Assembly (NCBI RefSeq): GCF_003044035.1
Contig: NZ_NVQC01000020.1
Coordinates: 76,358-108,357, forward strand
Reading direction: 5' to 3'
Origin: Candidatus Methylomirabilis limnetica
Lineage (GTDB): Bacteria; Methylomirabilota; Methylomirabilia; Methylomirabilales; Methylomirabilaceae
DNA length: 32,000 bases
Shown piece after piece: positions 23,491 to 31,400 of this stretch. The notes under the pieces were generated by a model. That model was not told where the DNA came from. It did not search any database and saw nothing but the letters and a program-made list of their open reading frames with translations. The translations under genes and the position numbers were made by a program. Position 1 is the stretch's first letter, and every line of letters starts with the position of its first letter.

Positions 23491-25244
23491 ACGCCGACAA
23501 ACGCAATCCGGCCGATCCGATTGAGAACCTGGCTATCGGCAAGATCATTGAAGTAGACGGATCCCACGTCATTGCGGAATTGGACCGCGGACTGACAGAG
23601 CTTTCTCGTGTGTATGCAGGGGAGACGTATCCAATCGGCCAGTTCGGCTCGATCGTGCGAATCCACTTCGGTCGCCGACTGATCTACGCCCTCGTGGGCC
23701 GACTCAGGATGAAGGCGGAGTACGAGTCTGAACGCGGCATCCCGTCTCAAGCCTCAGCCGATGAGAGAGTCGTCGAGGCCGACTTGTTCGGGGAGGGCGA
23801 GTGGAGCCAGGATGCGGCCGGCACCACGAAGTTAGATTTCGAGCGGGGCGTCGCGACGTATCCCCTGCCCCAACAGACGGTATATCTCACGCCCAAGTCG
23901 GAATTGCGCTCCATCTACGGGTATAAGAAGGGCGCGGTCATTCAGCTCGGCGAGCACGTTGGGTCAGGCGGCGCGCCGTGCTTTGCGGACATGAATGAAC
24001 TGCTCGGCAAGCACACTGCGGTCCTCGGTGCAACCGGAGCCGGAAAGTCCGGAGCGGTCGCAGCAATCGTTCACAGCATTCTTGACCGAGGGGCGGTTGC
24101 TGGCCACGCGAGCTGGAAACCGCAGATCGTCGTGCTCGACCCGCACAACGAATATGGCAAGGCGTTCACGGACCACAGGAGACTCTCGACGGACGAGGGC
24201 ACTCTTTCTCTCCCCTACTGGCTGTTGGACCTGGATGAAACGATCGGTCTCTTGGTCGGCAAGGCTGAGGACGCGGCTACGTCACAGTCCAACATCGTCA
24301 AGAATGCGCTGCTCACCGCGAGGATGTATTCCGCGTCGAAAGTTCTAAAGCTCGATGCGGCGAAACTCACGGTCGACGCGCCCATTCCATACTTTCTCGG
24401 TGAACCATCGGGTTTGGATGAGTTCGGTGCGATCAATGGCGTGAAGTATGAGACGGGTCTCGTCGGAGCGATCAATGCACAGAGACCAGACAACAAGGAC
24501 AAGAAGGCCCACGAGGGCTACAACAAAGTCCTGAGAAAGCTCGACTCCCTGATGAAGGACGAGCGCCTTGCGTTCATGATGAAGTCTTGGAGTGGAGCCG
24601 GCGACCCGATGACCGATGTGTTAGCTCAGTTTCTTGGTGACGGTGTTCCGGTGCGAATCGTCGACTTATCTGGAGTGCCAAACGAGGTGGCAGGGACCGC
24701 GAGCGCCGCGATAGCTCGAACCCTCTTCTCTCTAAAGGTCTGGCAGACGGCTGACGAGCGGGCGATGAGTCCGGTCTTGCTGGTTTGCGAGGAAGCCCAT
24801 CGCTACGTGCCAAATAGTGGCGAGGCGCAATACAGTGCAGCTCAGGGTGCGATCAGGCGAATCGCGAAGGAGGGCCGCAAGTACGGCATTGGATTGATGC
24901 TGGTGTCACAGCGCCCAAGCGAGGTTGAGGCGACCGTGTTGTCGCAATGTAACTCGTGGCTCGTGCTTCGCATCACGAATGAGGCTGACAGAGAACACGT
25001 CAAGGGGATTCTTCCTGATTCGATGGCTGGCCTCACGAAAATGCTGTCTGGACTTCGTCGACAGGAGGCTATTTTTGTTGGGCAGGCGGCCATGCTGCCA
25101 TCCCGAATTATGATCAGGGATCTAGCGGACGAACAGCTGCCTAAGTCGAACGACATCGACTTTGACAAGGGTTGGCAGAACGTCGGTATGTCCGCAGAGC
25201 AATTGGGGGTCGTCGCCAGTCGTTGGCGGTATCAGAAGCGATGA
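23487..25244 (+). CDS. HerA/FtsK-like (DUF87) hexameric ATPase
   Basis: An N-terminal HAS-barrel-like segment is present ([16 protein letters not shown]...GSIVRI). Walker A is GATGAGKSG, Walker B is [13 protein letters not shown], and [11 protein letters not shown] is also present. ATG 23487 overlaps the SIR2 stop (ATGA). Confidence 0.85.
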
Positions 25245-25561
25245 GCGGCAACTTCAGCGAATCCGTCGTCAAACAAGCCGCCCTGGCCTGGTTCGAAAGC
25301 CTCGGCTGGCGGGTCACGCACGGCCTCGAGATCGCGCCCGGCGAGGCCGGAGCCGAGCGGAATGACTACGGGCAGGTCGTCCTGGCGCAACGCCTGCGCG
25401 ATGCACTCGCGCGGCTCAACCCGGTGCTGCCCGCCGAGGCGCTGGAAGATGCCGTCCGCAAGCTGACGTGACCCGAAGGCGCGGAGCTTATCGTGCGCAA
25501 CCGCGCCCTACACCGCCTGCTCGTGGATGGCGTGACGGTCGGGTACCGCGAGGTGGCGGGC
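25241..25561 (+). pseudogene. hsdR: hsdR 5' remnant no. 1 (about 107 codons, with an in-frame TGA at 25469-25471)
   Basis: [25 protein letters not shown]...[18 protein letters not shown][stop][27 protein letters not shown] is collinear with the N-terminus of the full copy at 28453, and by eye roughly 80% identical in nucleotides. Similarity ends near 25561. Its ATG overlaps the HerA stop (ATGA). Confidence 0.75.
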
Positions 25562-28456: not shown

Positions 28457-31400
28457 GCGAGCGCGCCTTCACCGAATCCGTCGTCGAACAGGCCGCCCTC
28501 GCCTGGCTCGAAAGCGTTGGCTGGACGGTGAAGAACGGCGTGGCGATCGCTCCCGGAGAGCCTGCCGCCGAGCGCTATGACTACGGGCAGGTGGTGCTGG
28601 TGCAGCGGCTGCGAGATGCGCTCGCGCGGCTCAACCCGGCGCTGCCCGCGGAGGCGCTGGACGACGCTTTCCGCAAGCTGACGCGGCCGGAAGGCGTGGA
28701 GTTGGTGGCGCGCAACCGCGCGCTGCATCGGCTTCTGGTGGATGGCGTAACCGTCGAGTACCGCGACGCCGCGGGCAGCATCCGCGGCGCGCAGGCGCGT
28801 GTGATCGACTTCGACAACCCGGCTGGCAACGACTGGCTGGCGGTGAACCAGTTCAGCGTCGTCGAGAATAAGCACTCGCGCCGGCCGGATGTTGTGCTCT
28901 TCGTCAACGGCTTGCCGCTGGCGGTTGTGGAACTCAAGAACGCCGCCGACGAGAATGCTACGCTCTGGAGCGCCTTCCAGCAACTCCAGACCTATAAGGC
29001 AGAGGTCCCGTCGCTGTTTGCGCCGAACGCGTTGCTTACCGTCTCCGATGGTGTGGAGGCGCGTGTAGGCACACTCACTGCCGGGCGCGAGTGGTTCAAG
29101 CCCTGGCGGACCATCGCGGGCGAGACCTTGGCCGACGCGCACCTACCAGAGCTCCAGGTGGTGATCGAGGGCCTGTGCGCGCCGCGCCGCTTTCTCGACC
29201 TCTTGCGGGACTTCATCGTGTTCGAGGACGACGACGGCCGCATCGCCAAGAAGATGGCCGGCTACCACCAGTTCCACGCGGTACAGGTGGCGGTGGGCCA
29301 GACGCTGCGCGCCGCGGAACTGCGTCGCGCGGCCGACAACGTGGCCGAGGAACGCGGCCGCTACGAGTCGGGTCGCAATCCGGGAGGCAAACCCGGGGCG
29401 ACCGGCGCGTGGGTGTGGTATGGCACACACAGGGCTCTGGCAAGAGCCTAACCATGGCGTTCTACGCCGGACGCATCATCCGCGAGCCGGCGACGGAGAA
29501 CCCGACTCTCGTCGTGCTCACCGACCGCAACGACCTCGACGACCAGCTCTTCGGCACCTTCTCGCGCTGTCAGGACCTGCTACGCCAGCCGCCGGTCCAG
29601 GCGGAGAACCGCGCACATCTGCGCGAGCTGCTCAGCGTGGCGGCTGGCGGGGTGGTGTTCACCACCATTCAGAAGTTCTTTCCGGAAACCCCCTCACCCC
29701 AACCCTCTCCCTCGGTGGGGAGAGGGGGACGAATGGAGGCACTCTCTGGGCGGCGCAACATCGTGGTGATCGCCGACGAGGCGCACCGGAGCCAGTACGA
29801 CTTCATCGACGGCTACGCGCGCCACATGCGCGACGCGCTGCCGCATGCCTCGTTCATCGGCTTCACCGGCACGCCGATCGAGCTGCAGGACGCCAACACG
29901 CGCGCGGTGTTTGGCGACTACATCAGCGTCTACGACATCCAGCGCGCCGTGCAGGACGGCGCCACAGTGCCGATCTATTACGAGAGCCGGCTGGCCAAGC
30001 TCGCGCTCAATGAGGCCGAACGGCCGAAGATCGATCCAGAGTTCGAGGAGGCGACCGAGGGCGAGGAGGTCGAGCGCAAGGAGAAGCTCAAGACCAAGTG
30101 GGCACAGCTCGAGGCCGTGGTCGGCGCAGAAAAGCGGTTGGAGCTTGTCGCCAGGGACATCGTCGAACATCTCGAGAAGCGGCTCGAGGCCATGGACGGC
30201 AAGGCGATGATCGTCTGCATGAGCCGACGCATCTGCGTGGAACTGCACCGCGAGATCGTGAAGCTCCGCCCCGATTGGGACGGCGCCGAGGACGAGCGCA
30301 ACGCCCTCAAGGTGGTGATGACGGGCTCGGCCTCCGATCCGGCCGACTGGCAGCGGCACATCCGCAACAAGCCCCGGCGCAAGGCGCTCGCCAATCGCTT
30401 CCGCGATCCGAAGGACCCATTCAAGCTCGTCCTTGTGCGCGACATGTGGCTTACGGGTTTCGATGTGCCGAGCCTGCACACGATGTACATCGATAAGCCG
30501 ATGCGCGGGCACGGGCTGATGCAGGCGATCGCGCGCGTCAATCGAGTGTTCAAGGACAAGCCCGGTGGGCTCGTCGTGGACTACCTCGGACTCGCCCAGG
30601 AACTGAAGCAGGCGCTGGCCACGTATACCGAGAGCGGCGGTACCGGGCGCACGGCGCTGGATCAGAACGAGGCGGTCGCCGTGATGCTGGAGAAGTACGA
30701 GGTGTGCGCCGGGCTCTTCCACGGCTTTAACTGGTCGAATTGGACGACTGGGACGCCGCCGGAACGGCTCGGTATGCTCCCGCTCGCCCAGGAACACATC
30801 CTGAAGCAGGAGAGCGGCAAGGACCGGTGCGTGCCGGCAGTGCGTGAACTGTCTCAGGCCTTCGCGCTGGCGGTACCGCACGCCGAGGCGCTGCGCATCC
30901 GCGACGACCTTGCGTTCTTCCAGGCGGTCCAGGCCGTGCTCGCCAAGCGCGCTCCGGGCGATGCGCGGCCCGAAGAGGACATCGAGCAGGTCGTGCGGCA
31001 GATCATCTCGCGTGCGGTGGCGCCAGAAGGCGTGATCGACATCTTCGCCGCAGCCGGCCTTGCGAAGCCAGACATCTCGATTCTCTCGGAAGAGTTCCTG
31101 ACCGAGGTGCGCGGGATGCCCCAGCGCAACCTCGCGGTCGAGTTACTGCAGAAGCTGCTGAAAGGGGAACTCGCGGTTCGACGGCGCAAGAACGTCGTCC
31201 AGGCGCGTTCGTTCGCCGAGATGCTCGAGCAGACGATCCGCCGCTACCAGAACCGCGCCATCGAAGCGGCGCAGGTGATCGAGGAGCTGATCGCACTCGC
31301 GAAGGAGATGCGCGAGGCCAGCGCCCGCGGCGAGTCACTCCGGCTGTCGGAGGACGAGCTGGCGTTCTACGACGCGCTGGAGACGAATGACAGTGCCGTG

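Follow-up and report, generated by a model that had tools for sequence, protein, structure and literature searches.

Gene organisation of the locus

The window, a stretch of 32,000 nucleotides from Candidatus Methylomirabilis limnetica, carries hsdM, hsdS and hsdR in one locus and thus a restriction-modification system of type I (Pfam N6_Mtase/HsdM_N, Methylase_S and HSDR_N + SWI2_SNF2 + T1RH-like_C). Unless stated otherwise, the genes, heads and leader described below are on the plus strand. Both hsdM (19318..20928), encoding the N6-adenine methyltransferase subunit (HsdM_N + N6_Mtase, E=2.5e-103), and hsdS (20918..22345), encoding the specificity subunit (Methylase_S), are intact. The hsdS 3' tail at 22238-22303 is conserved with 80-96% identity across loci; this 66-nt segment matches more than 30 loci, and the S-tail profile matches the window at 22209-22362. 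It is the left homology arm of the arrangement described here.

The window contains three same-strand hsdR N-terminal coding segments, referred to as heads, which start at 25241, 27133 and 28453. The first is preceded by module 1, two adjacent intact genes encoding a SIR2-domain protein (22342-23490; PADLOC SIR2, E=1.3e-63) and a HerA ATPase (23487-25244; PADLOC HerA, E=4.4e-132), which match the PADLOC models of SIR2-HerA anti-phage defence systems. Scores against the NCBIfam equivalogs were under the cut-offs, indicating a divergent member. The module has 95.7% and 93.4% nucleotide identity to loci L102 and L090, respectively, the hsdM and hsdS genes of which differ. The HerA stop overlaps the ATG of head 1 (cgATGAgc), which runs from 25241 to ~25561-25571 (~107-110 codons; nhmmer head profile, E=1e-82). 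As the initial annotation had noticed, an in-frame TGA (25469-25471, codon 77) replaces an Arg codon, CGG at 28684-28686 in head 3. The 76-aa head 1 ORF matches Pfam HSDR_N; the TGA aside, the reading frame is open to 25621, 1 nt short of the next ATG.

That ATG belongs to module 2, an intact gene for an AlbA_2/Schlafen protein with an HATPase_c_4 domain (25623..27029; Pfam SLFN_AlbA_2, HATPase_c_4) that is 79% and 75% identical in nucleotides to its counterparts in L022 and L024. An alternative GTG start is present at 25611. The 103 nt between the AlbA_2 stop and head 2 are filled by a conserved non-coding hsdR leader (27030..27132), which belongs to head 2 according to alignment with L024, L050 and L041 and contains two TTATTTAAG motifs, at 27033 and 27100. 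Head 2 itself is short (27133..27245; ~34-37 codons; nhmmer head profile, E=3.5e-19). It is followed by a lineage-specific junction region of ~51% GC (27246..27578), which had no blastn match in 160 loci. A small minus-strand ORF within it (27290-27538) had no Pfam or NCBIfam match and a single tblastn match, in L027.

Module 3 contains a RhuM-Fic pseudogene (27579..28456; Pfam RhuM only; PADLOC PDC-S23). A gap in the blastn alignment marks a deletion of ~148 nt between ~28309 and ~28324 in which the Fic motif was lost; the intact homologue in L097 is 341 aa long, with HPFGDGNKR and a Pfam Fic domain. The stop of the Fic C-terminal ORF overlaps the ATG of head 3 (tcATGAgc), the start of the resident hsdR (28453..31631). 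The tight upstream junction originally assigned to every head is therefore seen at heads 1 and 3, but not at head 2 with its 103-nt leader. The resident gene, taken initially to be full length, is frameshifted: relative to L012, L013 and L028 it has 2 additional nt in a G run at 29395-29398. HSDR_N, SWI2_SNF2 and T1RH-like_C are distributed across two ORFs of 332 aa and 725 aa, and the split is identical in all assemblies. The resident hsdR and RhuM-Fic are pseudogenes, and the locus, lacking an intact hsdR frame, is by its sequence probably modification-only.

Divergence and assembly support of the three heads

Alignment, nhmmer and a direct-repeat search of the window recovered the same three head copies. 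Heads 1 and 3 have 81% nucleotide identity over 324 columns, and head 2 is 72-82% identical to the other two, depending on the method. Window head pairs are thus 72-80% identical, compared with a mean of 72% (sd 7%) for random resident heads of the family, in agreement with the proposal that they are diverged alleles and not recent duplicates. Between SIR2 and the hsdR stop, 9.3 kb of sequence are 100% identical in L001, L002 and L009, and L003-L008 cover part of this stretch at 99.99-100%; the window arrangement is 100% identical in at least seven independent assemblies. These differ in sample and assembler, so the stacked heads are not an assembly artefact.

Misassembly, or a duplication in situ of the 5' end of the resident hsdR with later divergence, has nothing in its favour besides the repeat itself. 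Divergence among the heads is as large as between random members of the family, head 1 is closer to L012 (84-87%) than to head 3 (80%), and each head continues a different foreign module (see below). Near-identity of the heads, the expected sign of an artefact or a tandem duplication, is absent. Head divergence, together with identity in the independent assemblies, refutes this explanation, to which we assign a negligible probability. A phase-variable hsd shufflon or inverton was likewise rejected, as the heads are all direct repeats on one strand and no recombinase gene is present.

Each head continues its upstream cargo

The initial annotation had noticed different accessory genes between the heads, and each module was found elsewhere directly before an intact hsdR. 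Window 22238-25309 matches L061, and 22236-25548 matches L099, which has the order S-SIR2-HerA-hsdR with hsdR intact. The segment 25632-27245 is colinear with L024 (AlbA_2-leader-hsdR, hsdR also intact). Window 27588-28765 matches L048 and L097 (RhuM-Fic-head), and RhuM-Fic directly precedes hsdR in many loci. Judged by sequence comparison, the three heads are diverged alleles, each with a cargo module known elsewhere before an intact hsdR; heads 1 and 2 appear to be the remains of hsdR genes that formerly followed modules 1 and 2.

Stacked heads recur in related loci

Loci for comparison were the 80 best matches per scan, not a random sample, and are mostly MAG or metagenome contigs. Stacked hsdR heads, for which a search of other genomes had been proposed, occur in 19 of 80 genome loci among the best matches of the hsdR family (1-3 extra heads each) and in the majority of SIR2-HerA cassette relatives; one further locus of the 80 has an internal hsdR fragment. 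The proportion is 19/63 for loci having at least 2 kb upstream and 16/35 for those having at least 1.5 kb of cargo. Loci with extra heads are distributed across many phyla. Stacking is also present on long MAG contigs, up to 2.7 Mb, which likewise speaks against misassembly. All extra heads lie on the strand of the resident hsdR and start at profile position 3-18, with codon 1 kept; 22 are upstream and 1 nominally downstream of hsdR (binomial p=7e-5). An independent HerA-anchored set yielded 29 stubs in 24 loci, two loci having an intact hsdR. Nearly all SIR2-HerA cassette relatives have a stub, and close ones in this set differ in stub length (~55-350 nt) and in downstream partner. The cargo types recur in other orders and combinations among related loci.

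The array-like layout, with all cargo in one orientation, would suit a dedicated site-specific system, integron- or transposon-like, that inserts cargo at the hsdR start. In the arrays examined here, genes for an integrase or transposase are absent, as are attC-like and terminal repeats, and searches of window 25000-28800 yielded neither an integrase nor attC-like hairpins, ends with inverted repeats or an RNA family (Rfam). Moreover, stub end points vary continuously from 54 to ~350 nt. The missing recombinase and repeats, together with the variable stub ends, largely refute such a system, and we consider it very improbable.

Junctions, microhomologies and mosaic heads

An orphan hsdS tail adjoins 17 of 53 stubs and is fused to them in frame. 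In relatives, the R-head::S-tail crossovers lie in in-frame microhomologies of 8-15 nt, one of which, CTGCGCGAnnCGCTG, was used in L016, L084, L037, L031/L029 and L100, loci with different flanking cargo. Homologous exchange is suggested by the cassette relatives. The window is 96-100% identical to L102 from ~22357 to ~25280, i.e. ~40 nt into the head, and the near-identical block shared with L090 extends to ~25355, ~115 nt into the head. Past these points identity falls to 60-80%, and the flanking hsdM, compared with these blocks, is only 75-87% identical. The heads are thus mosaic, and the conserved hsdR 5' end seems to be used for homologous crossovers. Synonymous-site conservation of the head motif was not clearly above background and gives no sign of arms selected for recombination. 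Even when filters were switched off, no remnant of an S tail was detectable after either of window heads 1 and 2, and an illegitimate join at these sites is proposed by analogy with the relatives.

Serial homologous recombination through the hsdR head, as originally proposed, accounts for part of the pattern. Crossovers within the head are indicated by the block ends in L102 and L090, but homologous recombination through the head only replaces cargo or makes mosaics and is not enough to strand a truncated head, for which a second join, out of register, is required. In cases with recognisable parental-type sequence, this join lies at an 8-15 nt R-head/S-tail microhomology or is a fusion just before the next cargo gene, as in the window. 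Similarly, the hsdR start does serve as an arm, as had been suggested, but the hotspot is the whole hsdS-hsdR gap, with the S tail and the R head as its two arms.

Microhomology joins between R head and S tail are also what would be predicted if two or three complete tandem type I loci had been collapsed by head-to-S-tail deletions in which the body of hsdR, the hsdM gene and the greater part of hsdS were lost. Such a course of events fits the stray hsdM tails in L033, L024 and L093 and, in L093/L107, the larger piece of hsdS retained behind the first stub. However, the required intermediate, tandem complete loci of the same family, was seen in none of ~170 loci, the window junctions hold no S or M remnant, and the head-to-tail placement of whole loci is left unexplained. 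We regard such a fusion of loci as unlikely.

Less likely still is duplication followed by replacement, in which microhomology-mediated unequal sister exchange would give a tandem copy of the S tail-cargo-R head unit, one copy being swapped later via the arms. Bacteria often undergo tandem duplication at short homologies, the swapping of cassettes through the arms is supported, and L084 has OLD-family genes on either side of a junction. Nevertheless, none of the 34 stacked head pairs is near-identical (mean 77%, max 90%), and duplicated cargo was seen in no array.

A model of cassette replacement and stacking

We favour, with a probability of about 0.7, a type I operon whose hsdS-hsdR gap has been filled by three defence modules from diverged loci of the same family, through homologous swaps and illegitimate stacking. 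The modules would be hsdS tail-SIR2-HerA-hsdR head, AlbA_2-hsdR leader-hsdR head, and small ORF-RhuM-Fic-hsdR. In replacement, to which the block boundaries and mosaic heads point, the hsdS 3' tail and the hsdR 5' head would act as arms, and foreign cargo would be swapped in by double homologous recombination. In stacking, one crossover would be homologous, within an hsd gene, and the other end would be joined out of register on a microhomology, linking the hsdR head to an hsdS tail or to the leader of the next cargo. Such homology-facilitated illegitimate recombination, or an equivalent event, would retain the old cargo and add the new one, leaving a truncated head between them and often a truncated S tail too. 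We read this join from the junction anatomy of relatives and extend it by analogy to the two junctions of the window. New modules could be added on either the hsdR or the hsdS side. Joins would be kept only when both cargo genes are spared, and later deletion would shorten a stub only from its free 3' side, so that every scar would keep codon 1 and most would be below 350 nt. In experiments, homology-facilitated illegitimate recombination is a rare event (PMC5361080 and references therein); selection and the horizontal transfer of composites already assembled would therefore have contributed much to the frequency observed here. The junction ORFs of L042 and L097 (177/177 nt identical) are an example of such transfer.

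In addition to this recombination origin, and not in its place, stubs might be kept as mini-ORFs or leaders that pass translation or transcription between cargo genes. The frame that opens at the head ATG ends in an ATGA/TGATG overlap with the start of the following cargo gene in 19 of 42 non-redundant stubs, compared with 19 of 82 in shifted frames (p=0.014; TGATG class, 9 vs 0), and 40 of 47 have no internal stop. The frame of window head 1 ends 1 nt before the AlbA_2 ATG, and head 2 keeps its conserved leader. On the other side, the ATGA class has no excess over shifted frames, in-frame microhomologies give in-frame joins automatically, substitutions after stranding have no third-codon-position bias, and window head 1 is stopped at codon 77. 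Such a role is conceivable but doubtful.

Combining the recombination model with coupling by stubs, the operons of this family may, as a more tentative reading, act as analogues of integrons that work without a recombinase. Portable arms, active even when stranded, would be provided by the S tail and the R head, and through them defence cassettes would be exchanged, gained and transferred from one phylum to another; in-frame R-head::S-tail mini-ORFs would be retained for translational coupling of new cassettes to the operon.

Discussion

The arrangement resembles the arrays formed by 'C-terminal displacement' in Rhs, by orphan cdiA-CT/cdiI and, through sequential displacement, by T6SS effector-immunity genes (Kirchberger et al. 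2017, PMC5361080; Poole et al. 2011, PMC3150448). In both, modules are gained serially at a conserved gene end, and displaced fragments are left in a row, at least two truncated same-orientation copies lying beside the full gene (here the heads at 25241, 27133 and 28453). The modules are diverged and horizontally acquired, each copy being linked to its own cargo; one homologous anchor and one illegitimate join are proposed beside ordinary homologous replacement; and composite arrays are passed on by homologous recombination. The hsd arrangement is mirrored, with hsdR 5' heads piling up upstream whereas the Rhs, CDI and T6SS fragments are 3' tips placed downstream. The conserved gene encodes a restriction subunit in place of a toxin carrier, and the cargo consists of separate, unrelated defence genes, not of the C-terminal tip of the conserved protein with an immunity gene. 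Also unlike those systems, the two arms come from two genes (hsdS tail, hsdR head), and many scars are chimeric mini-ORFs of the R-head::S-tail type.

The proposed second join resembles homology-facilitated illegitimate recombination, reported by studies cited in PMC5361080 (de Vries & Wackernagel 2002; Prudhomme et al. 2002; Meier & Wackernagel 2003) and in E. coli conjugation (PMC3240628). Common to both would be a one-sided anchor, an other end at a short GC-rich microhomology, and foreign DNA gained beside the anchor. In contrast to those studies, the process here is read from junction sequences, and the microhomologies, at 8-15 nt, occupy the upper end of the range and are shared by two genes of a single operon. 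As in integron cassette arrays, the units are small, promoterless and exchangeable, have one orientation and are separated by short recurring elements. Unlike in integrons, neither an IntI integrase nor attC hairpins were found (locus genes, inverted-repeat search, Rfam), pieces of genes, differing in length, serve as separators, and joining is not site-specific.

PrrC and RloC are among the defence genes known to be embedded in restriction-modification operons of type I. The defence cargo of the loci compared here comprises SIR2-HerA, RhuM-Fic/PDC-S23, Abi_C, OLD, Macro and others. Embedded defence genes have been described under the term 'guilt by embedding' (Payne et al. 2024, bioRxiv 10.1101/2024.01.29.577857), with DarTG2 in EPEC (PMC12255303) and TgvAB in Vibrio cholerae VPI-2 (PMC11411939) as examples; like the modules of the window, they are same-orientation cargo between hsdS and hsdR. 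The hsdS-hsdR site is termed a 'potential recombination hotspot' in PMC12255303. The passages of these three studies considered here propose no mechanism, unlike the model above; those of Payne et al. offer the 'genomic sink' idea only and exclude systems with pseudogenes. The literature searched yielded no description of stacked hsdR heads, of orphan tails of hsdS or of mosaic arms.

Embedding of defence genes in type I restriction-modification, BREX and similar operons is known and serves the discovery of new systems, and the route by which embedded genes arrive has so far been left to the sink idea. Stubs and orphan tails physically record which sequences act as arms, that cargo is both replaced and stacked, and also that identical composites move between distant bacteria. 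Extra HSDR_N fragments and hsdS tails provide a signature by which cargo modules can be delimited and new defence genes found; pipelines that drop pseudogene-bearing loci lose exactly the informative cases. The model can be tested with donor DNA bearing S-tail and R-head arms. It carries the logic of sequential displacement over from Rhs, CDI and T6SS loci to restriction-modification operons, and, if the reading as recombinase-free integron analogues is true, it would provide a general mechanism behind 'embedded' defence genes.

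Three consecutive cargo and hsdR units in the window

An ORF inventory and protein-family searches showed the window locus to be a single co-oriented gene set. Intact hsdM (19318-20928), hsdS (~20918-22345), SIR2 (22342-23490) and HerA (23487-25244) genes are followed by a stranded 5' piece of hsdR (head 1, 25241-~25571), an intact AlbA_2/HATPase_c_4 gene (25623-27029), a 103-nt non-coding leader (27030-27132), a second stranded head (head 2, 27133-27245), a 333-nt unique region (27246-27578) containing a small minus-strand ORF, a RhuM-Fic gene (27579-28456) and the resident hsdR (28453-31631), which begins with head 3. 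The resident hsdR is frameshifted; compared with comparison loci L012, L013 and L028 it carries two additional nucleotides in the G run at 29395-29398 (within 29386-29405) and is split into ORFs of 332 and 725 amino acids in every assembly. The locus is thus probably restriction-deficient, with hsdM and hsdS intact. RhuM-Fic is a pseudogene missing ~148 nt (28300-28330) including the Fic active-site motif; HPFGDGNKR is present in the 341-residue homologue in L097. Exact-protein look-up of the AlbA_2 product returned matches with the ATG start and none with a GTG start. The small ORF (27290-27538, minus strand) is divergent from RhuM-Fic and had no Pfam or NCBIfam match, and the sole homologue found is in L027 (11501-11650); its SSAIEG sequence fits (S/T)xxxE(G/N) and is thus a candidate for the motif by which VbhA-type antitoxins inhibit Fic proteins. 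In hsdS, the conserved central region (21362-21522 and 21627-21712) reaches 95% identity with loci that have unrelated target-recognition domains, the usual signature of recognition-domain shuffling.

Head 1 aligned to head 3 with 81% nucleotide identity over 324 columns, its sole defect being a TGA at 25469-25471, and head 2 was alignable over ~110 nt at 72-82% identity. Nhmmer searches with a resident-head profile gave E values of 1e-82 and 3.5e-19 for heads 1 and 2, respectively, which excludes chance resemblance. Assembly artefact, an alternative raised in the initial annotation, is excluded because the stretch from SIR2 to hsdR is 100% identical across contigs of at least seven samples built with different assemblers. 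The proposal that the heads are diverged alleles held as well: identity between a stacked head and the resident head of its locus averaged 77% and never exceeded 90% (n=34), close to the 72% (sd 7%) of random resident-head pairs, and none of the 34 is a recent duplicate. In-situ duplication is therefore excluded as the origin of the heads.

Blastn against the comparison loci (L-numbered, mostly MAG or metagenome contigs, several of them from Accumulibacter) resolved three colinear units in the window. The hsdS tail-SIR2-HerA-head unit matched L061 and L099, and in L099 the block continues into an intact hsdR. The AlbA_2-leader-head unit matched L024, there also with an intact hsdR, and the RhuM-Fic-head unit matched L048 and L097; RhuM lies directly 5' of an intact hsdR in many loci. 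The leader preceding head 2 bears two TTATTTAAG motifs (at 27033 and 27100), and a TTATTTAAG-bearing leader is kept upstream of hsdR in L024, L050 and L041. From the colinear matches and the conserved leader, the window locus is composed serially of three 'cargo + hsdR' modules (1, SIR2-HerA; 2, AlbA_2; 3, RhuM-Fic), in which the first two hsdR genes are reduced to stubs. The leader may serve hsdR as a promoter or an operator; a sigma-70 consensus scan of 27030-27132 found nothing, and promoter/terminator, inverted-repeat and Rfam searches of 25000-28800 found nothing relevant. Nearest relatives differed for each module: L102 for module 1 (96% identity), L022 for module 2 (79%), L097 for RhuM (89%) and L012 for the resident hsdR (88%). 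Hints of the order of arrival, drawn from how far heads 1 and 2 have decayed relative to each other and from how diverged the modules are, are weak and in conflict.

Stacked heads recur upstream of hsdR in related loci

A genome scan by head alignment yielded 80 loci, the best matches of the hsdR family, from many phyla and with 69-92% amino acid identity in the head. The nucleotide head profile detected extra hsdR fragments in 20 of these 80: 22 stranded heads in 19 loci, which answers the initial annotation's call for a search elsewhere, and one internal fragment in L017. All extra heads lie on the same strand as the resident hsdR and start at profile positions 3-18, and their ends spread over 54 to ~350 nt, with one of at least 650 nt. 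The arrangement is directional. With comparable sequence searched on both sides, 22 fragments were upstream, a single one was nominally downstream, and the minus strand had none (p=7e-5). Among 54 loci in which an hsdS tail and a resident hsdR were both present, only one had hsdS adjoining hsdR without cargo; cargo of at least 1.5 kb filled the hsdS-hsdR gap in 35 of the 54, 16 of them with a stub. The cargo is of defence type, including Abi_C, DUF4276, DUF1828/1829, KwaB-like, DUF4143 ATPase, M78 peptidase, Macro, AAA_13, UvrD, OLD, C5 methylase and ABC-3C genes. An Abi_C-domain gene of ~224 amino acids was the commonest single cargo of the family (12 loci); in L047, L056, L067, L069 and others it occupies a gap of ~700 nt.

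An independent, HerA-anchored scan of metagenomes found 29 stubs in 24 loci. Near relatives of the SIR2-HerA cassette almost always carry a stub of ~55-350 nt followed by varying downstream partners, and L099 and L164 retain an intact hsdR. The order is S-SIR2-HerA-stub-S tail-AlbA_2-intact hsdR in L102, S-SIR2-HerA-stub-RhuM-Fic-stub-DUF4143-hsdR in L097/L098 and S-SIR2-HerA-stub-DUF1828/9-stub-DUF4143-hsdR in L061; thus the same cargo types recombine in differing orders. The junction ORF joining the Fic C-terminus, stub and DUF4143 is identical at 177 of 177 nt between L042 (222-398), a Nitrospirae MAG, and L097 (5785-5961), an unrelated metagenome contig, which suggests that a ready-made composite was transferred horizontally not long ago.

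A scan of viral contigs brought up 11 hsdR loci, in which extra heads were absent and the hsdS-hsdR gap was always short. Tblastn of the head against plasmids returned matches all below 60% identity, and records matched in several places were almost absent. A short match on an isolate plasmid of Roseomonas mucosa (NZ_CP147882.1, L170) was rejected as a clean stacked head, being a differently broken hsdR: at 6986-10169 the gene is in three pieces, one of 118 residues containing the head, one of 446 residues and one with DUF3387, and a minus-strand gene intervenes. The 118-residue piece is annotated as a hypothetical protein with no reference to hsdR.

Exchange through the arms and anatomy of the junctions

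In a sliding comparison, identity of the window to L102 was 96-100% from ~22357 (SIR2 codon 5) to ~25280 (head nt ~40) and 60-80% beyond; the corresponding block with L090 extends to ~25355. The hsdM genes of L102 and the window share only 75% identity. More than 30 loci share the hsdS tail of 22238-22303 at 80-96% identity. Crossovers sit at the boundary between hsdS tail and cargo and inside the head, yielding mosaic heads, and these block boundaries indicate that cassettes pass from one M/S background to another. Conservation of synonymous codons within the head motif was overall not clearly above that of other conserved codons; GAA is favoured at codon 8, a preference for which a 5'-end codon effect could account.

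An orphan hsdS 3' tail lies within a few bases of, or overlaps, 17 of 53 stubs. When aligned to the consensus head and tail, these junctions proved to be clean crossovers at microhomologies, in-frame motifs common to both: CTGCGCGAnnCGCTG (LRDAL in both proteins) in L016, L084, L037, L031/L029 and L100, CCGGCGAGC in L013, GCCGAGCG in L080 and L093, and GCGAGCTGCGG in L105. The CTGCGCGAnnCGCTG site has been used repeatedly, since the flanking cargo differs among loci sharing it. Further stubs, heads 1 and 2 of the window among them, run straight into the sequence immediately 5' of the next cargo gene, and at neither window junction did nhmmer with all filters off detect a remnant of an hsdS tail. 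L033 shares the AlbA_2 leader, GAGGCATGACATGAC, but fused to a stub that differs in length. In L084 (6372-9998), one head::tail junction lies between two diverged OLD-family (AAA_15 + TOPRIM) genes. Stray hsdM 3' fragments occur upstream of hsdS in L033 (4559-5173), L024 (6487-6909) and L093 (5437-5535), separated by extra genes from the full hsdM, and are equivalent scars of the hsdM-hsdS gap.

Stub reading frames and possible translational coupling

Stub frames were examined in the window (25241-25623) and in 42 non-redundant stubs from L013-L165. The head-ATG frame stayed open to an ATGA/TGATG overlap with the next cargo start in 19 of the 42, versus 19 of 82 shifted frames (p=0.014); the TGATG class numbered 9 and 0, respectively. 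Its TGA aside, the frame of window head 1 closes at 25621, 1 nt 5' of the AlbA_2 ATG. Such closure may preserve translational coupling to the next cargo, with the stubs hypothetically acting as coupling linkers, but the ATGA class showed no excess over shifted frames and in-frame microhomologies give in-frame joins anyway. Substitutions after stranding had no third-position bias, and stubs as genes for conserved peptides are therefore rejected.

A proposed recombination model for stacking

The initial annotation had proposed repeated homologous recombination through the hsdR 5' end. The L102 and L090 blocks bear this out for exchange of cassettes; stacking would require an additional illegitimate join. 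We propose that stacking would take one homologous crossover plus one illegitimate join of the hsdR head to the left end of the next module, that is, homology-facilitated illegitimate recombination, a process likewise proposed for T6SS effector-immunity arrays and Rhs orphan strings (PMC5361080). The stacking of heads resembles the sequential displacement of polymorphic toxin loci. Only joins sparing both cargo genes would be seen, and since the ATG of a stub shares bases with the stop codon of the preceding gene, later deletions could shorten the stub only from the 3' end; the two together would explain the invariable retention of codon 1 and the prevalence of short stubs. Alternatively, tandem complete loci could have collapsed by the same microhomology deletions, but no such intermediate occurred among ~170 loci. 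Tandem duplication followed by replacement is a further, less probable alternative; the near-identical pairs it would leave were not seen. Site-specific insertion is excluded as the origin of stacked heads.

Defence genes between hsdS and hsdR are already known (PMC12255303, PMC11411939, bioRxiv 10.1101/2024.01.29.577857). In the passages retrieved by term search, the last offers only a 'genomic sink' idea as explanation and leaves out loci with pseudogenes. Stacked heads did not come up in literature searches on truncated, partial or remnant hsdR and hsd-locus recombination cassettes. Stacked heads turn the embedding of defence genes from an unexplained pattern into a testable recombination model.
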